The notes: generated by a model not told the origin, from the sequence alone. A stretch of 64,000 bases of DNA from Bacteroidia bacterium (GCA_965216465.1 CBDCFW010000006.1:832001-896000), one strand, 5' to 3'. Positions 30,181 through 41,972 are shown, numbered from the stretch's first letter. Translations and numbers: made by a program.

Positions 30181-31257
30181 TCAATTTAAATCAGGCACAC
30201 CAATACTAAACTTCTCTCTTCTATGCTCTTTGTACCTAAGCGGGGTTACAGATTTGTCGTAGAAGCTTAGCCTGTTTCGGTGAATTTTATTGATTAGAAA
30301 CAGTGCGTTTACAAATGAAGAAGGGTCAGCTAAACCTTTACCAGCAATGTCGTATGCCGTTCCGTGATCAGGCGATGTTCTTATGAATGGAAGTCCTGCA
30401 GTATAGTTTACTCCTGATGAGAAGGCTTGTTGTTTGAAAGGAATTAAAACCTGGTCGTGATACATGCCCAATACTCCATCAAAATTTTTAACATTATCAG
30501 ATCCAAAAAATCCGTCAGGGGCATATGGGCCGATAGCCATTATTTCATTTTCTTGAGCTGTTTTGATCGCAGGTGCAATAAGATCAATTTCTTCAGTACC
30601 CATCAAACCGTTATCACCAGAGTGTGGATTTATTCCTAACACCGCAATTTTTGGTTTCGAAATGGCAAAATCTGATTTTAAATGTTCGTGAAGTTCGGTA
30701 ATAGCATCTACTATTTTTTCAGAGCTCAAATTGGCGCTTACAGCATTCAAAGGAGTGTGTCCGGTAACCATGGCTACGCGCAAATCGTCATCGAGCAAAA
30801 TCATTTGAACGTTTGATTCAAATTTCTCTGCAAAATATTGCGTATGCCCATTGAATGCTAAGCCCGCATCTACGGTGCTTTTTTTATCAATCGGAGCAGT
30901 AAGTATGTTATGAATAATGCCATCTTTTATATCTTCAACGGCTAATTCTAATGCGTCTAATGCAAATTTCCCGGCCTCAGTACTTGGTTCACCTGGGGTG
31001 ATGTTTATTCGATCGCGGTTGCAAATTCGAATATTTACAGCATCCTCTTTAATATCACTCTTTTTACGAACAATATTGAAGTTTATCGGAGCGATATCCA
31101 GTAAGGAGGCATAGTGCTTAAACAGATAGGGCGTGCCATACACTACTGGCGTGCAGTAGTTGAGTACCAAGCTAGTGCTCAGAGTTCTCAAGATAAGCTC
31201 CGGACCTATACCATTAAAATCGCCAACGGTTATGCCTACGCTAAGTTTTTCGCTCAT
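30181..31257 (-). CDS. pdxA: 4-hydroxythreonine-4-phosphate dehydrogenase
   Basis: GDFNGIGPE, TAPIDK, GHT, INPHSGD, MYHDQ, RTSPDHGTAYDIAG. Confidence 0.95.
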   Translation of the reverse strand: MSEKLSVGITVGDFNGIGPELILRTLSTSLVLNYCTPVVYGTPYLFKHYASLLDIAPINFNIVRKKSDIKEDAVNIRICNRDRINITPGEPSTEAGKFALDALELAVEDIKDGIIHNILTAPIDKKSTVDAGLAFNGHTQYFAEKFESNVQMILLDDDLRVAMVTGHTPLNAVSANLSSEKIVDAITELHEHLKSDFAISKPKIAVLGINPHSGDNGLMGTEEIDLIAPAIKTAQENEIMAIGPYAPDGFFGSDNVKNFDGVLGMYHDQVLIPFKQQAFSSGVNYTAGLPFIRTSPDHGTAYDIAGKGLADPSSFVNALFLINKIHRNRLSFYDKSVTPLRYKEHRREKFSIGVPDLN

Positions 31258-31286: not shown

Positions 31287-31754
31287 TTAAGAAATAAGTT
31301 TTTGCCTGAGCATGAATTCAAGCTGTTGGTTGGTTTCAACCAGTCTTGATTTCATAAGGTGGTCTTGTTTCTTTTCTTGGTTTGCGTAAAAGGATGCTTC
31401 AATAGTTTGTGTTAAATCGTCTTTAACCCAAGGCTTGGTTAAAAATCTAAACACTTCACATCGATTTATAGCCTCAATCACAATATTAATGTCGTTACAT
31501 CCTGTAATTAAGATCCTTCCAATATGTGGATGCTCAGTCTTTAATCGCTCTAAAAGATCGACTCCAGAAATGTCTGGCATCATGTGGTCGGTAATTACAA
31601 CATCAATCTCATTAGCCTCAATAATTTCAAGGGCTTTAGCAGCACCATCGGCTAAGTGTACATTGAAAATTTTACGAAAATTTGCTCTGAAAGCTGTAAG
31701 ATTTTGTGCTTCATCGTCAACGTAAAGCACGGAAATGATTTTGTTTAAATCCAT
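31287..31754 (-). CDS. Stand-alone response regulator receiver with C-terminal coiled coil
   Basis: YVDDE, VITDHMMP, LITG, FLTKPW; no DNA-binding domain; TATATTTG promoter element at 31779-31786 (minus). Confidence 0.9.
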   Translation of the reverse strand: MDLNKIISVLYVDDEAQNLTAFRANFRKIFNVHLADGAAKALEIIEANEIDVVITDHMMPDISGVDLLERLKTEHPHIGRILITGCNDINIVIEAINRCEVFRFLTKPWVKDDLTQTIEASFYANQEKKQDHLMKSRLVETNQQLEFMLRQKLIS

Positions 31755-31837
31755 GGTTATCAATAAATAGTAGTACTACAAATATACATTAAATGTTGAT
31801 AACTGCAAAACTTGGATGTATTTATATAGATGTTTGT

Positions 31838-34090
31838 ATGATTACAATGACATATAAACCGCATTTCTATAGATTAACTAATTATGATGAAAGCTCCGCT
31901 TTTGAGCAACTAATTCGCGATAAATCTCCAAGGAAAATTGACACAATTGCCTCACAGTTAAGGGAATTGGTGCTTTGTCAAAATCCGAGCATTGCTAAAT
32001 CTGACCCTAAAGTCAACGAACTTATTAGCGAAAAATTGAATTCCGTTGATGGAAAATCTGACCATTATGGCGTGTGGGTTTACTATTCTTGGAGCAACAC
32101 ACTTATTCACATTCTTGATGAGAAAGAATTTATTGAAGTTCGAACGAATCGAAACAACTATAAAATTACACCTGAAGAACAAGAGAAGCTCAGATCTAAA
32201 GTTATAGGCATCGCTGGATTGTCAGTTGGCCGATCTGCTGCAGTCACTCTTGCTCTTGAACGTGTGGGCGGTGAAATACGTTTGGCTGACTTTGACGAAT
32301 TAGAATTGTCGAATCTCAACAGAATTAAAGCACCCTTGGCATGCATAGGATTGAATAAAGCCATTTCTACGGCACGTGAGATTGCTGAAATGGACCCATT
32401 TATTAATGTTGTGTGCTTTGACCAAGGATTGAATGAAGCAAACCTCCACGAGTTTTTTACCCAGGGAAGTAAGCTTGATCTTTTTGTAGAAGAATGCGAT
32501 GACATCAAAATCAAAATTCTATCGAGACAGAAAGCCAAAGAATTACAGGTTCCTGTAATTATGGAAACAAGTGATAATTGCATTATCGATATTGAGCGAT
32601 TTGATCTAGAACCAGAACGTCCGATAATTCATGGTCAGCTAGAAGGCTTGAGTCTAGAACAAGTAAAAGAACTCAAAACTCAAGAAGAAAAGCTGCCTTT
32701 TATTACTCGATTTTCAGGAGTTGATACTTTATCGCCACGAATGAAAAGTTCAATGATCGAAATTGAACGCACTATTCGTACTTGGCCTCAACTCGCATCG
32801 GATGTAACTTATGGAGCAGGCTTAGTAACTTATATGAGTCGAGAAATTTTGCTTGGACATCTATCCGAATCAGGTAGATATTCAGGTGATATCAAAGATA
32901 TTTTCAAACAGAAAATGAATGCTCCAAAGCAAAGCAGCGGAGCAATTTTATCAACTAATGAGCAAGTTGGAGCAGTTATTAAGCGATTAAAGCCCATTGG
33001 CACAAGGAGTGAAGTTGAAATTCCAAAATCAATTCTAGAGAAAATGGTTAAGGACTCGCTACGTGCTACTACTTTAGGTAACTTACAAATGCTGAATTAT
33101 GCCTATATCAATAATGTACTTTACCTTCTTTACGATAAAGAAAGAGGATACTCCTTCTCAGATATGTATGGTATCGGCTCGAAAATTAGTCTTGGTGCAA
33201 TTTTAGAAGGATTGAACGTGAGTGCGGCTTATCATGGATATGCATTGGACATCAATTACCACCCTCATGCAGAAATAGAAGAGGTGGCTGCAGAAATTGT
33301 ATTTGAACCAAAAACCAAAAACGGTTATCCAACTGAATCGGAATACCTATCACTGCACGAACGCTATACGGACCGAAGCAGATCTAACAATGGCAAAGTT
33401 TTAGGCAGCAAAATTGATCAACTAAATGTGTCGTTAGCCGATACAAACACCAGACTTCAGTATATTGATGATAGCAACAAAGTAGAGGCACTTTCGTCTA
33501 TACTGGCTGAAATTGATCGCATTCGAATTCAGTATAAAAACACACACGCAGACTTATTTAATGAGCTGAAATTCCCGAAAGAAGGACAAGAGCTTAAGGA
33601 GGGGATTAATATCGACGAAGTTGATTTGAAACCATCAGAAAAGGTGGGCTTCCAAATGACTAAGGACTATAGAGCTATTGAATTACTTAATGATTTAGAT
33701 TTAGGATCTAGGTTAGGAGAATTAACGTCGCAATTCATATCAACTTCCAGCGGTGTAGGATTGCTTACAATTAATAAGCAGTTGGCGAATCAATTTTATG
33801 AGGGTGGAAGAGTTGTACAACGATTTTGGATGAAGTGTAGTGAATTGGGTGTGGCATTACATCCTTTTACGGCATTAATGTTCTTCCATGAGCATATTAA
33901 GCGAGGAAATATTGAAAGCCCTTACAAAGAGAGGCTAGAAAATAAAATCAACGAGTTTTATTCATATTTCGAGCTTGAAGATGAAATGTCTGAGCTGTTT
34001 ATTTTCAGGTTGCTCAATCCTGATAAATCAAGTACGAAGAAAGTTACTACTAAAAGAAGAGATATAGATGAAATATTATTCACCGAATAA
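31838..34090 (+). CDS. Rv1355c/MoeY-like ThiF (E1-like) adenylating enzyme fused to a nitroreductase-like domain (OxzB-like)
   Basis: WVYYSW...RTNRN..KIT.EEQ, GIAGLSVG, RLADFDELELSNLNRI, VEECD, WPQLASDV; C-terminal ERYTDRS and GGRVVQRFWMKCSELGVALHP. Start could be 31793, 31838 or 31847. Confidence 0.85.
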   Translation: MITMTYKPHFYRLTNYDESSAFEQLIRDKSPRKIDTIASQLRELVLCQNPSIAKSDPKVNELISEKLNSVDGKSDHYGVWVYYSWSNTLIHILDEKEFIEVRTNRNNYKITPEEQEKLRSKVIGIAGLSVGRSAAVTLALERVGGEIRLADFDELELSNLNRIKAPLACIGLNKAISTAREIAEMDPFINVVCFDQGLNEANLHEFFTQGSKLDLFVEECDDIKIKILSRQKAKELQVPVIMETSDNCIIDIERFDLEPERPIIHGQLEGLSLEQVKELKTQEEKLPFITRFSGVDTLSPRMKSSMIEIERTIRTWPQLASDVTYGAGLVTYMSREILLGHLSESGRYSGDIKDIFKQKMNAPKQSSGAILSTNEQVGAVIKRLKPIGTRSEVEIPKSILEKMVKDSLRATTLGNLQMLNYAYINNVLYLLYDKERGYSFSDMYGIGSKISLGAILEGLNVSAAYHGYALDINYHPHAEIEEVAAEIVFEPKTKNGYPTESEYLSLHERYTDRSRSNNGKVLGSKIDQLNVSLADTNTRLQYIDDSNKVEALSSILAEIDRIRIQYKNTHADLFNELKFPKEGQELKEGINIDEVDLKPSEKVGFQMTKDYRAIELLNDLDLGSRLGELTSQFISTSSGVGLLTINKQLANQFYEGGRVVQRFWMKCSELGVALHPFTALMFFHEHIKRGNIESPYKERLENKINEFYSYFELEDEMSELFIFRLLNPDKSSTKKVTTKRRDIDEILFTE

Positions 34091-34778
34091 AGTGCTGACG
34101 GCGGCTCGAAAGATTAAAATCTTTGGTTTTTGGGCAAAAGACAACCCTGACTATTGCAATATTTTTGAATATGGTCATAGAAAGGTACTCACAGACCATG
34201 GGTTGAACCTGACCTCAAATAACAACGATTGGAAAACGCAAGAGAATGTGTTTGTATTCTTGGCATTTGAAGGAAACACACCGGTTGGAGGTATTCGGTT
34301 TGAAAAATATGACCCGCGTTACAAACTTTCAGTTGAACGAGCACTACACATGCATGACAAGAACATCATGGAATCAATCAAGGAGAATAACCTTGGTGAA
34401 TTTGGAGAGGCCTGCGGCTTATGGAATGACAAAATCGTGTCTGGTGAAGGACTATCCGTAGTGCTATCTCATCTGTGCTTTATTTACGCACCCATGCTGG
34501 CTTGTGATCACATGATAGCCTTCAATGGAATCTATACTTACAAGATTTCACGAAGTATGGGAGGCCAAATTGTCGATAACATCGGTGATGAAGGCATTTT
34601 CAAATATCCAAACGAACGATTCAAGTCGGCGGTCTGGAAATTTGATCTACAGAACTTCCAAGGAACAACCAAAGAATTTGAACAGCGTGTGTTGCAATTG
34701 AGAAAGAATATAGAACCCGAGTTTATTGTAAATAATACCAAGAATGGACTACATATTAAGTTGTCAAACAAAATTTAA
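34068..34778 (+). CDS. Putative GNAT-fold N-acyl amino acid synthase/acyltransferase (Rv1356c/FeeM-like)
   Basis: VFLAFEGNTPVGGIRF beta-strand, GEACGLW, MGGQ, YPNERF segments resemble Rv1356c-type proteins as I recall them; overlaps the ThiF gene. Confidence 0.62.
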   Translation: MKYYSPNKVLTAARKIKIFGFWAKDNPDYCNIFEYGHRKVLTDHGLNLTSNNNDWKTQENVFVFLAFEGNTPVGGIRFEKYDPRYKLSVERALHMHDKNIMESIKENNLGEFGEACGLWNDKIVSGEGLSVVLSHLCFIYAPMLACDHMIAFNGIYTYKISRSMGGQIVDNIGDEGIFKYPNERFKSAVWKFDLQNFQGTTKEFEQRVLQLRKNIEPEFIVNNTKNGLHIKLSNKI

Positions 34779-36915
34779 ATCACTAATAAAGAAGGGGTTA
34801 ATTGTTCTATTTGCCTTTCTTTCTTTACAATCTTTTTCACAAGAGGTAGTAACCATTCAGGCTGCTGATACTTCATTTCAAGTAGAAGGCGAGAAGGTAT
34901 ACCATGGTCTTTTAGCAAATGCTGACATGCTTAAAGACTCTATTGCAACGATGGAGTGGGTGACATTCAACGCAACCAAGACTTTCAACTTAACTGAGGC
35001 ACATACTGACCACGTTCTCCGTGTAACATTAAACAACGAATCTGCTGAAGAAAATTGGCATATAACCATTCCTGCCCCTCATTTAGACTCTGTAACCTTG
35101 GTTTATAACCTCGAAACCGAAAGTCCAGTTAAGCTATTGTCAGGAGACATGGTCTGTAGATCTGAACGACAAATTGATGATGCAAGTCACTCATTCGCAG
35201 TGCAAATCCCAAAGGGTGAAACGAAAACATTTTATGTGATTGTAAGAAGCGACGGTGCCAAAGTAATGCCGATAGTGATTGAATCACAACAAGCATTTTA
35301 CGCTGGAGTGTCTACTCGAAACATATTCTTCGGGATTTTCTCGGGTATCATGGTTATCATGTTTGTATACAACCTAATTGTATTCTCATATACACGTGAT
35401 AAGAACTATTTGTACTACATTTTTTATGTACTATTTATTTTCTTGGCTCAGTCTAACCTACTTGGAATCAGTTATTACTTTGCTGGATATTCGCCAACCA
35501 TTAATAACTTATTGATGTATGTTGGGAGTGCTGTGTCAGGGGTGTTTGGAGGACTATTTCTACGACACTTCTTAAAAACCTATATCACGGTTCCTAAGTT
35601 GAATTTTATGCTATCTGTGGTAATTGCAGTGTACATTGTTCAACTCTTGTTGGCCCTTCTCGGTTTCTTTGAATTTAGCTTTATCCTTATACAACTTGCT
35701 GGCTTCTTGGTCGTGATCACATTTGCGTCAATCTCAATTAAGCTTTCTATAGCAGGAGAGCGGTTTGCTAAGATATATCTTGTTGCGTGGACGCCAATTT
35801 TTGTAGGATTAGTATTCTTAATTCTCAGAGATAGCGGCGTGTTGCCTTTCACAGATTTGATCAATAATATGTTCCCTGTTGGTGTGATTTTAGAAACGGT
35901 AATGCTGTCTCTAGCATTGGCTAATCAGATTACTGTGCTTAAACGCGATAAGGAAACAGCAAATCAGCGAGTAATTGAAGAAGTGAAAAAGAATGAAGAG
36001 CTGGTTAGAAATCAAAACATTGTACTTGAAGAGAAAGTGGCACTTAGAACCCAAGAGTTAGAAAGTGCCCTTAATAATCTTAAATCGACTCAATCTCAAC
36101 TGGTGCAATCTGAAAAGATGGCATCTCTGGGTGTGCTCACCGCTGGAATTGCACACGAGATTAATAATCCGATAAATTTTGTAACGGCAAATGTTATCCC
36201 GTTAAGAGAAAATATCGAGTCTTTGAGCGACCTCCTTTCAGAGTATAAAAATATTGATAGAAGCAATTTTGAAGACGAGCTTGCTCGAATCGAAAAGAAG
36301 GAAGAAGAAGTTGAGCTTGATTACATCTTAAAGGAGACTGACGAGTTAATTAATGGTATTGAAGAAGGAGCAAAACGTACCCATACCATTGTTGATGGAC
36401 TAAAAACCTTCAGTAGGGGAGATGCTGGTTCAAATAGTCTTGCAGACCTTAATGTTGGTATTAACAGTACGCTATCGGTACTTAAAAGTCGTTTAAATGG
36501 AGTCAAAGTAACTAAACAGCTTGCTTCTGATCTTCCAAGAATTAATTGTCAAATTGGTAAAATAAACCAAGTATTTTTAAATCTGGTAAACAATGCACTC
36601 GACGCATTGGAAATTGTAAATGGTCCAAATTCTAATCAATCTAATATCGTAATTAAGTCTTATTCAAAAGAGGATAAGATATACGTTGAAATTCAAGATG
36701 ATGGTAATGGAATCAGTGAAAATGACCAAAAGAAAATATTTGAGCCATTTTTTACCACCAAGCCAATTGGAAAAGGAACAGGTTTAGGGCTATCTATTTC
36801 GTACGGAATAATTGAAGAACATCATGGTGAAATGAAGCTGGAATCTGAAGTGGGCAAAGGCACCACATTTACCGTTATTATTCCTGTAACTGATGACGAG
36901 AGCGAGCCTCTTTAA
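34744..36915 (+). CDS. 7TM-DISM sensor histidine kinase
   Basis: Signal peptide, DISMED2-like periplasmic domain, 7 TM helices (MFVYNLIVF, YLYYIFY, YLVAW, LSLALA), EKMASLGVLTAGIAHEINNP, QVFLNLVNNALDA, FEPFFTTKPIGKGTGLGLS. Confidence 0.93.
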   Translation: MDYILSCQTKFKSLIKKGLIVLFAFLSLQSFSQEVVTIQAADTSFQVEGEKVYHGLLANADMLKDSIATMEWVTFNATKTFNLTEAHTDHVLRVTLNNESAEENWHITIPAPHLDSVTLVYNLETESPVKLLSGDMVCRSERQIDDASHSFAVQIPKGETKTFYVIVRSDGAKVMPIVIESQQAFYAGVSTRNIFFGIFSGIMVIMFVYNLIVFSYTRDKNYLYYIFYVLFIFLAQSNLLGISYYFAGYSPTINNLLMYVGSAVSGVFGGLFLRHFLKTYITVPKLNFMLSVVIAVYIVQLLLALLGFFEFSFILIQLAGFLVVITFASISIKLSIAGERFAKIYLVAWTPIFVGLVFLILRDSGVLPFTDLINNMFPVGVILETVMLSLALANQITVLKRDKETANQRVIEEVKKNEELVRNQNIVLEEKVALRTQELESALNNLKSTQSQLVQSEKMASLGVLTAGIAHEINNPINFVTANVIPLRENIESLSDLLSEYKNIDRSNFEDELARIEKKEEEVELDYILKETDELINGIEEGAKRTHTIVDGLKTFSRGDAGSNSLADLNVGINSTLSVLKSRLNGVKVTKQLASDLPRINCQIGKINQVFLNLVNNALDALEIVNGPNSNQSNIVIKSYSKEDKIYVEIQDDGNGISENDQKKIFEPFFTTKPIGKGTGLGLSISYGIIEEHHGEMKLESEVGKGTTFTVIIPVTDDESEPL

Positions 36916-37945
36916 TAATTCCTCGAATCCAAATAGGAAATACAATAATTCCCAAGAATAAATACGGGAAGTAACTAATTAATCGCCACAAAACGGAGGT
37001 ACTGTTTGCCAACTGTGGGTTGCTGAAGTATTCCCCCAAAAATGCAGGAAAAAGCAACTCCGCGAGACCACTTGCACCTGGAGTTACAGGCAACATTAAG
37101 GCTCCCCACATGATTAATTGACGAGCAAATATCTCAAGCACTTCTGTTCCGTGACCAAATGCTAAAATCAAGAAGTTTACTAAGGCAAAGCGAGCAGTCC
37201 AAGAAAATAGGGTCGCTCCAAATGCTTTAAACCAAAAAGGTCTTCTTTTTAGTCTAAATTCTTCTGACGCTACCAATAACTCATCACCCCAAACCTTAGC
37301 ATTTTCTTTCCATCTTCTTAGTAATGGAAGTCTAAAAATCCCTTTTAGAATACCACTTACAACTTGGGGACGTATGAAAATCCCGACATAAACAACAACA
37401 GCCCAAACGATGAGAATAACGTAAGATGCGATGAAGTATCCTTTCATCAACGAGCCACTGAAAACCCCAATCTGACCCGGAATTTGACTATTAAGTCCAG
37501 TAAAAATTAGAAGAAGTGGAACAGCTAGAACATAGAACAATACGTCTAAATAAGATGTAGCGAGAACAATAGCTGTAGATTTTCCTGTTCCAAGTTTTTT
37601 CTCTTGTGCCAGTAAGATAAAGGCTGCAGCGGTGCCTCCAACTATTCCCGGTGAAATTGCCGAAGAGAATTCCCAGAGCACAACAAGGTGAAAGCACTTT
37701 CTCCAACTCAATTTTTCATCACTTAAAATCCGAAGGCGGTATACGTATCCCAAGAAACGGAATCCGACCATGATTAAAGCAAGGATAAACCAAAAAAGTA
37801 CATTAACTCCCCAGTCTATGTCTTTGTAGGCATTTGGATCAAAATCTCGATAGAAAAAATAGAACACAACAGCGACCCCTATAACGATAGGAATTATGAG
37901 GTTACGTCCCTCAAAATATTTTCGCAGTTGTCGTACTGAACTCAA
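36878..37945 (-). CDS. Lysylphosphatidylglycerol synthase TM (UPF0104/flippase-like) membrane protein
   Basis: Polytopic; SAISPGIVGG, PVTPGASGLAE, LWRLISY. Confidence 0.85.
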   Translation of the reverse strand: MSSVRQLRKYFEGRNLIIPIVIGVAVVFYFFYRDFDPNAYKDIDWGVNVLFWFILALIMVGFRFLGYVYRLRILSDEKLSWRKCFHLVVLWEFSSAISPGIVGGTAAAFILLAQEKKLGTGKSTAIVLATSYLDVLFYVLAVPLLLIFTGLNSQIPGQIGVFSGSLMKGYFIASYVILIVWAVVVYVGIFIRPQVVSGILKGIFRLPLLRRWKENAKVWGDELLVASEEFRLKRRPFWFKAFGATLFSWTARFALVNFLILAFGHGTEVLEIFARQLIMWGALMLPVTPGASGLAELLFPAFLGEYFSNPQLANSTSVLWRLISYFPYLFLGIIVFPIWIRGIIKEARSRHQLQE

Positions 37946-39402
37946 GTCAATGCGTTTACTTTTTGTCCTTGTGCTAATGAATATTTACGCTCACCGTTGA
38001 TGGTAATCAACATTTCAATAGAGCCTATAGTAAGGAAGTCGTACATACGAATAGCTTGCTCCATGAAGCGTTTTTTCTTTACTTCCTTGGTTGTGTTCTT
38101 TTCAATTCTAACTACATATGTATTTACAAGGTCAGTGAACACAGACCCTTCAGGCCATACTTGTGTACCACGGTTTGTAATAGTTGTAACTTCCATGTCT
38201 TCATCCAAGTTGGCTTGAGCAATTGCAGCAATTCTTTCGGGTTGCTCTTCAGACTCAATAAATAAATCGATACCTACCGTTTCAATCACATCGTCACTGG
38301 CAACAAGCATTCTATTGCTGTCTAACATTTGTGGTTTGTGATGCTTTTCGGCATCGTGGTCGGTAATGTTTGAAATATCAAGTTCATTTATTACGGCTTG
38401 TGCAAATTCTTTGGTACCTAAAGCGTTTGCTCTATCGGCTCCAAAATCTCCAGTATGAATTCCTTTGTCAATGGCGTCTAAAAGTGCTTTACGAATTGCG
38501 TAGCCGTACTCTTCTAATCCCATTTGGTTAAGCATCATCGTTCCGCTAAGCAATAACGAAGTAGGATTAGCTAAATTTTTTCCTGCAATGTCAGGGGCGG
38601 TTCCGTGAACAGCCTCAAATATTTTAATATGGTCTCCAAGGTTTGCAGATGGCGCAAATCCTAAACCACCAACAAGCCCGGCACAAAGATCTGAAACAAT
38701 GTCTCCTTGTAGGTTGGTTAAAACAACACACTGAAATTTATCAGGCTCGTAAACCAACTTCATGCAAAGTGCATCTACAATTACATCATCAGCTTCAATT
38801 TGAGGATAGTCTTTAGCAATCTCATAAAATGTATCGAGGAACATTCCATCTGTTAACTTCATGATGTTTGCTTTGTGCCCACAAGTTACACGTGTATATC
38901 CCTCTTTGATAGCAGTTTCAAAAGCAGAACGAATCACTTGCTGAGATCCAGGGCGTGATATAATTCTACGGCTAACAGCAACATCTTTTGTCATATAGTG
39001 CTCAATTCCTCCGTATGTATCTTCGATGTTTTCCCTAACAATTGTAATATCAATAGGAATTCCAGCCTTGCTAAATACCGTGTCAACGCCTTTAATCGAT
39101 TTGAACTTTCTGATGTTCGAATGGGTATTCCAAGTTTTACGGGCGGTAACATTGATACTTTTTACCCCACCGCCTTTTGGTGTTTCCATCGGACCTTTGA
39201 ATAAAACTCCAGTGTTCTCAACACTAACCTTTGCTTCATCTGTCATTCCCGTAGTGAAACCTTGGTCGTAAACACCTTTTCCCATAGCTACAAAATCGTA
39301 ATCTAAAGGAACATTTGCGGCGTTGAAGATGTCGAGAACGGCGTCCATAATTTCAGGACCGATTCCGTCCCCTTTTGCTACTGATATTTTTACTTTATCC
39401 AT
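37942..39402 (-). CDS. icd: NADP-dependent isocitrate dehydrogenase with C-terminal extension
   Basis: GDGIGPEI, KGPMETP, SINVTARK, RENIED, HKANIMK, NLQGDIVSD, FEAVHGTAPDIAG; ATG at 39402. Confidence 0.93.
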   Translation of the reverse strand: MDKVKISVAKGDGIGPEIMDAVLDIFNAANVPLDYDFVAMGKGVYDQGFTTGMTDEAKVSVENTGVLFKGPMETPKGGGVKSINVTARKTWNTHSNIRKFKSIKGVDTVFSKAGIPIDITIVRENIEDTYGGIEHYMTKDVAVSRRIISRPGSQQVIRSAFETAIKEGYTRVTCGHKANIMKLTDGMFLDTFYEIAKDYPQIEADDVIVDALCMKLVYEPDKFQCVVLTNLQGDIVSDLCAGLVGGLGFAPSANLGDHIKIFEAVHGTAPDIAGKNLANPTSLLLSGTMMLNQMGLEEYGYAIRKALLDAIDKGIHTGDFGADRANALGTKEFAQAVINELDISNITDHDAEKHHKPQMLDSNRMLVASDDVIETVGIDLFIESEEQPERIAAIAQANLDEDMEVTTITNRGTQVWPEGSVFTDLVNTYVVRIEKNTTKEVKKKRFMEQAIRMYDFLTIGSIEMLITINGERKYSLAQGQKVNALT

Positions 39403-39574
39403 ATGTCTTTTTTGAAAGAGCTGCAAAGGTAGCAAAGTTATAGCCAAGTTCTAGCGATTTGGGCACACTTTTTGTGCGTTTGGAAATGCGTTAAAATGCT
39501 GATTTATATTAGTGTTTATGGTAGAATATGCTACTTTTGCAGGTTCTTAATATAAGCGAGAAAGATTTTATTAA

Positions 39575-40468: not shown

Positions 40469-40573
40469 TGGAACAAATTTGGCTTTAAACTTCAAGGCTT
40501 TCGAAAATTATTTTTTTATTCGATTGAAATAATACTACACTTGCAGTCGAATTAAGTTCTTTAACGAAATTTT

Positions 40574-40672
40574 CTTATCAAGAAAAGCCGAGGGAATTGG
40601 CCCGATGACGCTTTAGCAACCTACCTCCGGTAAGGTGCTAACTCCAATCTCACATATGTGGGAACAGATAAG
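40574..40672 (+). ncRNA. SAM-I (S-box) riboswitch aptamer
   Basis: P1 CTTATC...GATAAG; ATCAAGA, GAGGGA..GGCCCGATGA, GCAACC, GGTGCTAACTCC consensus; lies upstream of methionine genes. Confidence 0.95.
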
Positions 40673-40714
40673 TAGTGAATTGTAACAAATCGTGAGAACA
40701 CGTTAAGATATACA

Positions 40715-40802: not shown

Positions 40803-41972
40803 ATGAGCAGAATTACAGAAATTATTCATTCCGTACCAGTAGACGAATTAACAGGATCTATCAGCGTACCCGTTTATCAAACTTCAACATTCGTACAACG
40901 TGCACCTGGTGTAAACAAGGGGTACGACTATGCCCGTTCTGGGAATCCAACTCGTTCAGCCCTCGAAAGTGTGCTTTGCAAACTAGAAAATGGTGCAGGA
41001 GTAAGTGTGTTCTCCACCGGGCTAGCAGCTATTGATGCCGTAATCAAACTATTTAATGCTGGTGATGAGATTATCGCTGTCGATGACATTTATGGAGGTG
41101 CTTACCGCCTCTTTGAACATGTGTTTTCACGATTAGGAATCAAAGTGCACTATGTTGACACTACCGAGACAGCTAATCTAGTTAATTACATTAGTGACAG
41201 AACAAAATGCATTTGGCTAGAAACTCCAACCAATCCTACATTAAAAGTGAGTGACATTAATGCCGCAGCCAAGTTGGCCCAATCTATTGATGCATTATTG
41301 GTTGTAGACAACACATTTGCCAGTCCGATTGCTCAACAGCCGATTCAATTGGGAGCAGACGTTGTTATTCACAGTGCAACAAAGTATTTAGGAGGACATT
41401 CTGATTTGGTAGCTGGAGCAGTTATTTGTAAATCAGAAAAATTAGCTGAACGTATTCAGTTTATTCAAAACGCATCGGGGGCTATTCTGGGACCTTGGGA
41501 TTGTTTTCTAGTGTTGAGAGGAATAGAAACCTTAGACCTAAGATTCAGAAGGCAATGTGAAACAGCATTGCAAATAGCTCAATATTTGGACTCGCATCCT
41601 GATATTGACCAAGTGCATTACCCCGGATTAGTCTCACATCAAAATCATCATATTGCCAAGAAACAACAACGTGGCTTGTACGGCGGAGTTGTATCGTTCT
41701 CACTAAAGGAAGATAAAACTTCTGTAGCGTCAAAGTTTGTTTCGAACACCAAATACTTTAAACTGGCAGAGAGTTTGGGTGGAGTAAAAAGTCTTATTTG
41801 TCAACCGGCCCTTATGACACATGCTTCGGTACCCAGAGAGAAACGCTTGGCATCAGGAGTTCAAGACTCGCTTATCAGATTGTCTTGCGGTATAGAAGAC
41901 GTCGAGGATTTAATCATTGATTTAGAAACAACATTTGAATTGATCAAACGAAAGGAGGTGGAAGTATTATGA
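40803..41972 (+). CDS. Cys/Met metabolism PLP enzyme (cystathionine gamma-synthase/lyase, MetB-like)
   Basis: YARSGNPTR, WLETPTNP, VDNTFASP, HSATKYLGGHSD, AESLGGVKSL. Confidence 0.92.
   Translation: MSRITEIIHSVPVDELTGSISVPVYQTSTFVQRAPGVNKGYDYARSGNPTRSALESVLCKLENGAGVSVFSTGLAAIDAVIKLFNAGDEIIAVDDIYGGAYRLFEHVFSRLGIKVHYVDTTETANLVNYISDRTKCIWLETPTNPTLKVSDINAAAKLAQSIDALLVVDNTFASPIAQQPIQLGADVVIHSATKYLGGHSDLVAGAVICKSEKLAERIQFIQNASGAILGPWDCFLVLRGIETLDLRFRRQCETALQIAQYLDSHPDIDQVHYPGLVSHQNHHIAKKQQRGLYGGVVSFSLKEDKTSVASKFVSNTKYFKLAESLGGVKSLICQPALMTHASVPREKRLASGVQDSLIRLSCGIEDVEDLIIDLETTFELIKRKEVEVL

Follow-up and report, generated by a model that had tools for sequence, protein, structure and literature searches.

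Organization of the locus

The window, that is, the whole 64,000-nt stretch of DNA that was analysed, contains a stand-alone receiver (RR1) that diverges from a three-gene operon, in which successive genes overlap. The operon encodes a TrzS-like fusion protein, a 236-residue protein (p236), and a sensor histidine kinase of the 7TMR-DISM type; Table 1. An earlier note on this DNA had described such a co-oriented, overlapping trio with a divergent receiver less than 100 bp away, and all four genes were found in place. The fusion gene overlaps the p236 gene by 23 nt, the p236 gene overlaps the kinase gene by 35 nt, and the gap between RR1 and the fusion gene amounts to 38-92 bp, depending on the start codons chosen. 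The starts at 31838 or 31847 are considered likely for the fusion, given that alignments with the family model and with relatives begin at residue ~18-23. The same note had set the module between pdxA and icd; pdxA indeed flanks the receiver, but a flippase-like gene intervenes between the kinase and icd. The arrangement is far beyond chance, because it was found again in every related locus with enough flanking sequence.

Table 1. Genes and regions at the locus, with positions counted from the first nucleotide of the window
Feature	Position	Strand	Remarks
pdxA	30181-31257		Adjoins the receiver
RR1 receiver	31287-31763 (ORF)	-	Likely ATG at 31754, 155 aa; ORF reaches TTG at 31763
Divergent intergenic region, RR1/operon	31755..31837		AT-rich; sequence read directly
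TrzS/Rv1355c-family fusion	31793-34090	+	Likely start at 31838 or 31847
p236, 236-aa GNAT-fold protein	34068-34778	+	Predicted N-acyl amino acid synthase
7TMR-DISM sensor histidine kinase, 723 aa	34744-36915	+	Assigned by Pfam domains
LPG_synthase_TM gene, flippase-like	36878-37945	-	Sits between the kinase and icd
icd	37942-39447		Beyond the LPG_synthase_TM gene

The divergent region presumably holds the promoters of both RR1 and the operon. A box (TATATTTG, minus strand, 31780-31787) that resembles the consensus TAnnTTTG was spotted by eye. A scan for sigma-70-type promoters gave fewer sites than were obtained in shuffled sequences, and is not informative for Bacteroidota.

The fusion protein

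The fusion protein, which the earlier note had read as a ThiF-nitroreductase enzyme, was placed in the Rv1355c/TrzS family by a curated model (NCBIfam NF005901), with a score of 645.4 bits against a cut-off of 476. The match extends over residues 20-760 and over positions 10-716 of the 722-position profile, and was identical in a search of the whole genome. The protein consists of a ThiF-like adenylating cyclase (residues ~20-400), followed by a flavin oxidase of the nitroreductase superfamily (~420-760). Pfam detects the ThiF half alone (residues 124-256), and the nitroreductase-type half is visible through NCBIfam, in which an Acg-family FMN oxidoreductase model matches residues 422-695 (E 3.7e-18).

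The two halves were compared with 82 homologues at columns with a conservation of at least 90%. In the ThiF half, the window matches the consensus at 80 of 83 such columns, and the motifs GIAGLSVG, DFDELELSNLNR, and EECDD are all kept, leaving the adenylation half intact (nucleotide-binding loop, DxD...SNLNR, and ECD motif). The ECD motif aligns with the Asp of the TrzS D217A variant, as judged by position in 715-aa mycobacterial homologues rather than in the M. tuberculosis protein itself. In the oxidase half, the consensus is matched at 13 of 19 conserved columns and deviated from at six, making this half the second most deviant of the 83 sequences. The changes affect the nitroreductase-type FMN-site motifs: APSxGNxQPW became ATTLGNLQML, RxTNR became RYTDR, and E(I/L)RW became ELKF. 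An intact flavin-dependent oxidase half was not found in the window fusion by this conserved-column comparison, and the half looks degenerate and impaired. Since family-invariant residues are missing from it, the window enzymes may not yield an unsaturated oxazolone, and the term "oxazolone", in its strict published sense, may not fit the organism of the window.

The p236 protein

The p236 protein matched no Pfam or NCBIfam model, and a PDB profile search gave no matches. It had been called GNAT-like in the earlier note, a description that cannot be read from the family libraries, but is borne out by the predicted fold. The AlphaFold2 model (pLDDT 88.2, pTM 0.87) was most similar in Foldseek to FeeM (2g0b; E 3e-8, TM 0.73-0.80 on the target), so the absence of a GNAT fold, which the earlier note had named as refuting its reading, was not found; FeeM was followed by the AHL synthases MesI, BjaI, and EsaI. 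VIA-align likewise ranked FeeM first (Z 16.9, 181 of 188 target residues aligned, rmsd 3.1), with AHL synthases next. Protein acetyltransferases ranked below small-molecule acyltransferases in these structure searches. FeeM, whose gene was recovered from soil DNA and which represents the long-chain N-acyl amino acid synthases, is similar to p236 in size and in the three-layer GNAT variant that it has in common with AHL synthases. However, the structural alignments show only 10-12% sequence identity, and the FeeM Pfam model was matched by 3 of 24 p236-family members and Acetyltransf_1 by 5 of 24, all weakly. FeeM clusters are, to our knowledge, not known to carry a kinase.

Comparison of the p236 family (A1) with an actinobacterial family (A2) by hhalign gave a match (97.2%, E 3.2e-11, 184 columns), with the motif pairs GGIR/GGvR, E.CGLWN/vEMKsAW, and YP..RY/YPdxRYRT in common. 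Family A2 includes a Rhodococcus plasmid gene that lies beside a GGDEF gene and diverges from an Rv1355c-family gene, and a hypothetical protein of M. tuberculosis that is 51% identical to the Rhodococcus plasmid member. The tie between A2 and TrzA is made by genomic position and by this hypothetical protein, rather than by a record named Rv1356c. No similarity was detected between p236 and a ThiF-adjacent GNAT of Streptomyces. A natural fusion of an Rv1355c-type ThiF protein with p236 exists (P0148), and p236-like domains are also fused to TIR and LRR domains. The profile alignment suggests that p236 is distantly related to the actinobacterial family adjoining Rv1355c-type genes, and the modelled fold leads us to predict a divergent TrzA/TyzA/FeeM-like N-acyl amino acid synthase, the products of which would probably be fatty-acylated amino acids. 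The assignments of both enzymes, fusion and p236, are made with good confidence.

The sensor kinase and the receiver

The kinase matched 7TMR-DISM_7TM (129.4 bits, residues 193-394), 7TMR-DISMED2 (43.2 bits, residues 78-179), and HATPase_c (87.9 bits), all above the Pfam cut-offs, and HisKA with 25.2 bits, just below the cut-off of 26.9. All four kinase boxes (H, as GIAHEINNP, N, G1, and G2) could be read in its translation. A signal peptide precedes the periplasmic DISMED2 and the seven-helix membrane domain, after which come a coiled coil, HisKA, and HATPase. No other gene of the genome matches PF07695. The hybrid kinases RetS and LadS of Pseudomonas aeruginosa, which act in the Gac/Rsm network, have the same DISMED2 and seven-helix sensor fused to a histidine kinase core, but no small-molecule synthase is known to be encoded next to them, and carbohydrate or calcium has been proposed as their ligand. 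For the DISMED2 domains of known 7TMR-DISM proteins, the ligands proposed are carbohydrate or calcium and not lipids, which counts against lipid sensing; no lipid ligand is known in this family. In a kinase tree, the p236-linked kinases were not resolved as one clade, and unlinked paralogues fell inside in four long-branch groups. Seven genomes of the window's family have a 7TMR-DISM domain without a p236 match.

RR1 matched Response_reg alone in Pfam (77.5 bits) and has no output domain. In NCBIfam, it aligned best with positions 1-139 of the 422-position profile for NosR-family c-di-GMP phosphodiesterase regulators, which cover their receiver and linker. It keeps D13, D14, D56, T84, and K107, and every catalytic and phospho-acceptor residue is retained in the kinase and RR1. 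The C-terminal tail, N-x-Q-L-E-F-x-L-R-Q-K-L-L/I-S, is invariant or nearly so among 26 aligned sequences (alignment A3). A REC-HisKA-HATPase protein, which is present in most relatives, is absent from the window. Neither receiver of the module has a DNA-binding output, so the sequence gives no sign of an autoinduction loop.

Conservation across Bacteroidota

Related loci were counted if they extended at least 3000 nt upstream and at least 3500 nt downstream of p236. Two sets were compiled, 59 loci from genome contigs (genome_contigs) and 22 from the window's family, with at least four loci common to both; the 80 loci surveyed are the best-scoring of at least 570 and do not represent a random sample. 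A 7TMR-DISM sensor on the same strand as p236 was present at 59/59 and 22/22 loci, respectively. When the kinase was required to lie directly downstream of p236, 71 of 72 loci qualified, and the exception has its kinase upstream in the same locus. Within the window's family, a PF07695 domain was found ~1.1-1.2 kb downstream of all 26 full-length p236 genes. The predicted synthase and the membrane sensor kinase are thus inherited as one unit, and the synteny with 7TMR-DISM kinases, lack of which would have refuted the reading of the earlier note, is conserved across Bacteroidota. We regard a functional coupling of GNAT and kinase as very likely. A divergent RR1 copy was found in 52 of 57 complete loci.

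The step that follows the GNAT is variable. The 59 genome-contig loci carry a ThiF-oxidase (46), ThiF alone (7), an ICMT-type methyltransferase (3), or a class-I methyltransferase (3), and no tailoring gene was present at 4 of the 22 family loci; ThiF is adjacent to p236 in 53/59 and 18/22 complete loci. The conserved core therefore consists of GNAT, kinase, and receiver, with a ThiF-oxidase that is exchangeable or absent. The proposal that a synthase pair is wired to a two-component system consequently holds for the GNAT, but not for the pair. No exporter, resistance gene, or further biosynthetic gene was found in the module, and no exporter is conserved. Of 27 other genomes in the window's genus, 3 carry the module, and most small genomes lack it.

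Comparison with a congener (G025) revealed that the synthase and kinase genes are far more diverged (TrzS 41% identity, p236 37%, and kinase 45%) than RR1 (75%) and the flanking genes pdxA (71%) and icd (81%). By analogy, such strong co-divergence is the pattern of diversifying signal-receptor pairs.

Relation to known systems

Genes of signal synthases are adjacent to kinase genes in LuxM/LuxN, CqsA/CqsS, RpfF/RpfC-RpfG, and LqsA/LqsS-LqsR. The window is similar in that genes for a polytopic membrane histidine kinase and a receiver accompany that of a predicted synthase, and the RR1 receiver, as in the Rpf system, resembles those of HD-GYP/NosR-type regulators. It differs in its predicted chemistry (acyl amino acid derivatives) and in having receivers without an output domain. 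Quorum-sensing kinases of the LuxN, CqsS, RpfC, and LqsS types are listed in the accessible text of PMC8895600, whereas the 7TMR-DISM receptor type is absent from the families named there.

TrzA and TrzS (Rv1356c and Rv1355c) were described as the makers of N-acyl tryptazolones in mycolic-acid-producing Actinomycetota, and TrzS was found experimentally to cyclise and desaturate the N-acyl tryptophan made by TrzA (PMC12856293, accessible text). The window fusion belongs to the same curated family (NF005901) and lies beside a small GNAT-fold acyltransferase, apparently a remote homologue of the actinobacterial partner, and signalling genes are found next door in both systems. However, the two genes stand in the opposite order, the GNAT following the fusion in the window; p236 is too diverged for any library model; the signature residues of the oxidase are lost; and the neighbours encode a two-component system with a 7TMR-DISM kinase where the actinobacterial pair has c-di-GMP enzymes. 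The c-di-GMP genes flanking Rv1355c/Rv1356c, to which the earlier note had drawn attention, are mentioned in the same text (PMC12856293).

OxzA/OxzB of Pseudoalteromonas rubra (10.1101/2020.06.11.147165) and TyzACB of M. tuberculosis (PMC10404671) had been cited in the earlier note as makers of oxazolones from acyl amino acids, in agreement with what is accessible of both papers, in which an N-acyltransferase is followed by ThiF cyclisation and flavin-dependent desaturation. The structural neighbours given for TyzA, FeeM (2G0B) and BjaI (5W8C), are also those of p236 (PMC10404671). In the published similarity network, these systems fall into a ThiF subcluster other than that of TrzS (PMC12856293), and the accessible portions of their papers mention no linkage to a sensor kinase (10.1101/2020.06.11.147165; PMC10404671). 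[quoted passage not shown] No publication on the coupling of a p236-type synthase to a 7TMR-DISM kinase was found in the literature.

A possible self-made lipid signal and its alternatives

The gene cluster suggests a self-made lipid signal encoded together with its receptor. Family and fold indicate that p236, in the cytoplasm, would N-acylate an amino acid from acyl-CoA or acyl-ACP, and that the ThiF half would adenylate the free carboxylate and cyclise the product to an oxazolone, the ring of which would be desaturated by the flavin oxidase half in typical family members. Because the oxidase half looks impaired in the window, its product may instead be a saturated azlactone or a derivative. 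The varied steps after the GNAT (ThiF-oxidase, ThiF, class-I SAM methyltransferase, ICMT-type membrane carboxyl methyltransferase, or nothing) would all act on one carboxylate or leave it free, as might be expected of a signal diversified into "dialects". The neutral, lipophilic product would partition into or through the membrane, where the co-transcribed kinase may detect it via its seven-helix domain or DISMED2. Phosphoryl transfer would then proceed to RR1 and, in most relatives, to the REC-HisKA-HATPase protein as well, and RR1 may act through protein contacts of its invariant C-terminal tail rather than through DNA binding. The reading of the locus as a make-and-sense module, taken as a whole chain that includes the ligand-receptor step, is put forward tentatively, with a chance approaching even. 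It would represent the logic of synthase and sensor kinase with a new variant of chemistry and receptor, and is worth pursuing; if true, the poorly understood acyl-amino-acid lipids would gain a function.

One alternative is that the order is reversed: the kinase would use DISMED2 to sense polysaccharide, calcium, envelope stress, or a similar cue from outside, and RR1 would turn the neighbouring enzymes on or off at the protein level. In that case, the lipid made (acyl amino acid or oxazolone) would be an effector (stress protectant, antimicrobial, or surface-active lipid) rather than a ligand of the kinase. Conservation of an operon that combines enzymes, kinase, and receivers fits such wiring equally well; DISMED2 is retained in the kinase; and receivers without DNA-binding domains make control by protein contact plausible. 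Biosynthetic clusters under two-component control, however, usually have DNA-binding regulators, and the module lacks an exporter, a resistance gene, and additional biosynthetic genes. Antibiotics were reported to induce proteobacterial oxazolones, and planctomycete N-acyl tyrosine derivatives to be antimicrobial (PMC12856293, accessible text), in line with an effector role, whereas a kinase that stays while the tailoring changes is not predicted by an effector model, and the faster joint divergence of synthase and kinase relative to RR1 also argues against it. We consider this alternative unlikely, though a serious competitor to the self-made signal.

The product might also be a resident membrane aminolipid, whose level is adjusted by a seven-helix kinase that monitors the composition or packing of the bilayer, with no communication between cells. 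N-acyl amino acid lipids are described as common in Bacteroidota membranes (PMC12479983, accessible text), tryptazolones as more abundant in cells than in the supernatant (PMC12856293, likewise), and the flippase-like gene adjoins the module in the window's family. That neighbour, however, was found at only 1 of the 80 surveyed loci, the best-scoring of at least 570, and this one (L064) comes from a contig that also belongs to the window's family, which points to local synteny. The patchy occurrence of the module is unlike that of a core envelope function, and variable capping of the carboxylate would be unexpected for a bulk lipid, making such a homeostatic loop improbable.

Least probable is that GNAT and ThiF modify a protein or peptide, for instance the strikingly invariant RR1 tail, in the manner of E1-like ThiF proteins that adenylate protein C termini: several pathways include ThiF-like enzymes that adenylate the carboxylates of proteins or peptides (PMC12596934, accessible text) and fusions of p236-like domains with TIR and LRR domains exist, but the characterised members of this ThiF family act on N-acyl amino acids (PMC12856293, accessible text), the RR1 tail is unchanged in many loci from which ThiF is absent, and the structures most similar to p236 are those of acyltransferases that act on small molecules and have tunnels for acyl chains.

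Organization of the Module

ORF listing and family scans agree that the four genes described in the earlier note at 31287..36915 are present. [quoted passage not shown] The kinase was found to contain a signal peptide, a DISMED2 domain, and a seven-helix domain, with the H box and ATP-binding boxes intact, and RR1 retains D13, D14, D56, T84, and K107. The flanking genes had been given as pdxA and icd. The former does lie beside the receiver, but icd is not directly beyond the kinase, since a gene missing from the earlier list (LPG_synthase_TM) intervenes, its 3′ end overlapping that of the kinase gene by 38 nt. Rfam revealed no match inside or adjoining the module, and the SAM riboswitch located upstream of a Cys/Met-metabolism gene is an ordinary arrangement. 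A scan for sigma-70-type promoters, the consensus of which is unsuited to Bacteroidota, returned fewer sites than shuffled sequences.

Features of the module and of the region downstream
Feature	Position	Strand	Remarks
RR1, receiver-only	31287-31763	minus	ORF listing and family scans; 155 aa from the probable ATG (31754)
ThiF-oxidase fusion	31793-34090	plus	765-codon ORF; ORF listing and family scans
p236	34068-34778	plus	236-aa ORF; overlaps fusion gene by 23 nt
7TMR-DISM histidine kinase	34744-36915	plus	723 aa; overlaps p236 ORF by 35 nt
LPG_synthase_TM, flippase-like	36878-37945	minus	Between kinase and icd; convergent with kinase
SAM riboswitch	40572-40674	plus	Rfam, 83.9 bits
Cys/Met-metabolism PLP enzyme gene	40803-41972		Downstream of SAM riboswitch

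Linkage of p236 to the Kinase

Relatives of p236 are encoded at no fewer than 570 loci in a search of one genome per species. The best-scoring 80 of these (hereafter, the wider loci) represent the nearest relatives, not a random draw, and at least four of them share contigs with loci from the window's own bacterial family; by their titles, they belong to Cytophagales, Sphingobacteriales, Chitinophagales, Flavobacteriales, and Saprospiraceae. A sensor and kinase lie directly downstream of p236 in 71 of 72 loci that extend 3500 nt or more beyond it, and upstream within the same locus in the single exception. Synteny with the 7TMR-DISM kinase, on which the earlier note had staked its proposal in advance, is thus conserved: the kinase is present in all 59 wider loci with room on both sides (at least 3000 nt upstream and 3500 nt downstream of p236), and in the window's family, profile searches with p236 and the Pfam 7TM model placed a same-strand 7TMR-DISM domain approximately 1.1-1.2 kb downstream of 26 of 26 full-length p236 genes, a count that leaves aside three further matches cut by contig ends. 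The window's genome encodes exactly one 7TMR-DISM protein, the module kinase.

A TrzS-family gene scoring above the cut-off was found in 26 of the 66 genomes of the window's family, representing 12 of 13 genera. Twenty of the 28 family loci consist of the receiver followed by divergent ThiF(-oxidase), p236, and kinase genes, usually at the pdxA-to-icd site; one of the remaining eight is cut by a contig end, and seven contain a second TrzS paralogue with different neighbours. Within the window's genus, TrzS and p236 matches were detected in only three of 27 other genomes. Genomes of the genus that lack the module are mostly small (about 2.0-2.4 Mb), compared with 3.2 Mb for that of the window. 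The LPG_synthase_TM gene was rejected as a component of the module; it occurs with the module throughout the window's family, but it lies beside only one of the 80 wider loci, itself on a contig of the same family, indicating local synteny.

Fold and Relatives of p236

No Pfam or NCBIfam model matched p236 of the window, and a word-based search identified only five relatives. Homologues gathered from related loci were assembled into an alignment of 24 sequences (A1). When its members were scanned singly, five of 24 gave weak matches to Acetyltransf_1 (best E 2e-4), and three of 24 to the FeeM model (best E 1.5e-5). The family profile gave no matches among PDB sequences at E values up to 10, and a fold search was therefore needed. 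The GNAT fold that the earlier note had proposed was borne out by a confident AlphaFold model (pLDDT 88.2, pTM 0.87), for which FeeM was the leading Foldseek match (E 3e-8, target TM 0.73-0.80), ahead of two CoA-dependent AHL synthases, MesI and BjaI, and then EsaI. An independent all-against-representatives structure alignment also placed FeeM at the top (Z 16.9; rmsd 3.1 over 181 residues), and LasI scored Z 15.3. FeeM and BjaI are likewise the structural neighbours reported for TyzA (PMC10404671). The p236 family is a large one, with 650 representatives at an E threshold of 1e-3 and 276 at the stricter 1e-30; its Atlas clusters are unnamed "hypothetical protein" clusters from Bacteroidota. 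In one metagenomic protein (P0148), an Rv1355c-type ThiF half (482 bits) is fused directly to the p236 domain. A predicted complex of p236 with RR1 (score 0.21, mark 0.32) speaks neither for nor against binding.

A connection to the actinobacterial enzymes was provided by a Rhodococcus plasmid, in which an Rv1355c-family gene lies beside a divergent gene for a 260-aa hypothetical protein and a GGDEF gene. The 260-aa protein matched the A1 profile at 86%, and the alignment of its own family (A2, 20 sequences), which includes a hypothetical protein of M. tuberculosis that is 51% identical to it, matched A1 at 97.2% (E 3.2e-11, 184 columns), with corresponding motifs. These profile comparisons make a strong but indirect case for a relationship between the p236 family and TrzA, to which A2 is tied by genomic position and by the unnamed M. 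tuberculosis protein. A tblastn comparison of this protein with four plasmid loci located a partner beside only one (L143), and no A2 partner gene was detected within the stretch compared on the other Rv1355c-bearing plasmids of the four. On a Mycolicibacterium plasmid, the gene that follows an Rv1355c homologue is unrelated to the p236 family, to which hhalign revealed no similarity.

The ThiF-Oxidase Fusion

Along its full length, the fusion protein fits the NCBI curated model for the Rv1355c family, scoring 645.4 bits where 476 is required. According to PMC12856293, TrzA (Rv1356c) N-acylates tryptophan, and TrzS (Rv1355c) then catalyses an ATP-dependent cyclisation of the acylated tryptophan followed by desaturation with O2, yielding N-acyl tryptazolones. 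The window's protein was aligned with 82 homologues (72 from Bacteroidota, 10 from mycobacteria), and columns conserved at 90% or more were scored. Its ThiF half matches 80 of 83 such columns; its oxidase half matches only 13 of 19, and is the second most deviant among the 83 sequences. The motif APSxGNxQPW, which we take to be the nitroreductase-superfamily signature, is changed to ATTLGNLQML, RxTNR to RYTDR, and E(I/L)RW to ELKF, and the changed residues are located in unambiguous alignment blocks. In several relatives from the same bacterial family (including L058 and L059), the oxidase half is entirely absent. These substitutions, together with the oxidase-less relatives, lead us to think that desaturation is probably impaired or lost in the window's organism. 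TrzS residues D217 and R540 could be placed only approximately on the alignment, and the M. tuberculosis TrzS sequence was absent among the 120 matches listed.

A Constant Core with Variable Capping

In the 59 complete wider loci, the tailoring gene encodes a ThiF-oxidase in 46 and ThiF only in seven, and Pfam searches revealed that ThiF is replaced by an ICMT/PEMT-type membrane methyltransferase in three and by a class-I SAM methyltransferase in three. Four genomes from the window's family have, at the same chromosomal site, the receiver, p236, the kinase, and a REC-kinase protein but no tailoring gene. Since the tailoring gene varies or is absent, while the other three stay, the constant unit consists of the GNAT, the 7TMR-DISM kinase, and the receiver. 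The earlier note had coupled an oxazolone synthase pair to the kinase; the GNAT part of this coupling holds, but the pair is not the conserved core. In each case the tailoring step would concern one and the same carboxylate, which is either modified or left free. A REC-HisKA-HATPase gene follows the kinase in most loci, and is absent from the window and its nearest relatives.

RR1 proteins are 148-173 aa in length, mostly 151-159 aa (65 loci). In an alignment of 26 sequences from several orders (A3), the last 14 codons specify a C-terminal tail, N-x-Q-L-E-F-x-L-R-Q-K-L-L/I-S, which is invariant or nearly so and is conserved beyond most of the receiver domain. The tail looks like a docking peptide for a putative partner.

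A quick tree of 114 seven-helix domains (94 linked, 19 unlinked, one unknown), the backbone of which is unresolved, placed the unlinked paralogues in four long-branch groups inside the linked kinases. The linked/unlinked label is clustered on this tree (0 of 500 shuffles as low), which does not amount to monophyly of the linked kinases. Clades track the type of tailoring gene, a pattern that vertical descent alone would also give. Comparison of the window with a congener (L051) showed identities of 41% for TrzS, 37% for p236, and 45% for the kinase, versus 75% for RR1, 71% for pdxA, 81% for icd, and 98% for rpoD. Between these two congeners, the synthase and receptor evolve fast and the receiver is fixed.

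Possible Signalling Role and Alternatives

The best-supported reading of the module is that an acyl amino acid derivative made by the cell itself is sensed by the co-transcribed kinase, to which it would bind. In its pairing of a synthase with a kinase, the module resembles the LuxM/LuxN, CqsA/CqsS, and RpfF/RpfC systems, in which the two genes are adjacent; PMC8895600 lists the kinases of these pairs. The synteny fits nearly as well if the wiring is reversed, such that the kinase responds to a different cue and, through the output-less receiver, regulates the enzymes. Sensing of a self-made ligand is favoured over this arrangement because the synthase-receptor pair is constant, because the ligand-capping step is interchangeable, and because, between congeners, identity falls to 37-45% for TrzS, p236, and the kinase, compared with 71-81% for RR1 and the flanking housekeeping genes. 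A membrane-homeostasis loop is also compatible with the synteny, but fits it less well than reversed wiring.

That self-made ligands of this kind serve a hitherto unrecognised system of cell-to-cell signalling throughout Bacteroidota is possible, but we regard it as somewhat doubtful. In such a scheme, N-acyl amino acid synthases of a private family would make the autoinducers, whose carboxylate, whether free, methyl-esterified, or cyclised to an oxazolone, would define lineage-specific "dialects". A dedicated 7TMR-DISM histidine kinase would be the receptor, and would pass the signal to a receiver that has no output domain and ends in an invariant docking tail.

The coupled components, oxazolone enzymes and 7TMR-DISM kinases, are already known individually. 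7TMR-DISM receptors are widespread, and to our knowledge they have no defined small-molecule ligand; we also know of no recognisable LuxI-type synthases in Bacteroidota. The discoverers of bacterial oxazolones describe their physiological role as unknown (PMC12856293; 10.1101/2020.06.11.147165), and the text of the oxazolone papers makes no mention of kinases or Bacteroidota. A full-text literature search combining "7TMR-DISM" with "N-acyl amino acid" returned no papers, and further full-text searches found no paper on the coupling or on the GNAT-kinase core, although supplementary neighbourhood tables of the oxazolone papers may list such neighbours. If phylum-wide cell-to-cell signalling of this kind is correct, bacterial oxazolones would acquire a first physiological role and 7TMR-DISM receptors a first class of lipid ligand, and Bacteroidota would have a quorum-sensing-like system of their own. 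The questions of oxazolone function and of the 7TMR-DISM ligand are joined here in one operon, conserved in at least four orders of the phylum. Carriers of the module include the cultured and non-pathogenic genera Algoriphagus, Pedobacter, Arcticibacter, and Daejeonella, so that the signalling hypothesis is directly testable, and the role of oxazolones and related acyl amino acids becomes a direct experiment in harmless cultured bacteria. This variety of capping steps, from ThiF-oxidase through ThiF alone and two kinds of methyltransferase to none at all, would provide a natural comparison of signal variants.

Related Genes in Other Contexts

The second full-length TrzS-family paralogue in seven family loci (L047 7960-10314, L044 7937-10258, L032, L038, L042, L045, and L054) stands apart from any GNAT, kinase, or receiver gene; around it lie genes for a GCS2-like ligase with CBS domains, an ABC exporter, and an MscS-type channel, and it may belong to a different ThiF-oxidase pathway. 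Streptomyces and Kitasatospora plasmids encode a ThiF protein that shares ~40% identity with the ThiF half of the window's fusion and lacks an oxidase half (L142 3929-5703; H11-H14). In the one locus inspected (L142, from Streptomyces), an unrelated GNAT gene (Acetyltransf_3) follows and overlaps ThiF, and hhalign detected no similarity between this GNAT and the p236 family; this is a parallel oxidase-less pairing.

Domains resembling p236 were also found fused to TIR (P0121) and leucine-rich repeats (P0099), and in tandem, both as two stretches of one 479-aa protein (P0008) and as two adjacent genes (L067 2781-4201). L067 and L066, contigs titled as Akkermansia and Burkholderiales MAGs, carry the whole module; their kinases nest within Bacteroidota sequences on short branches, and mis-binning of the contigs is more probable than transfer.
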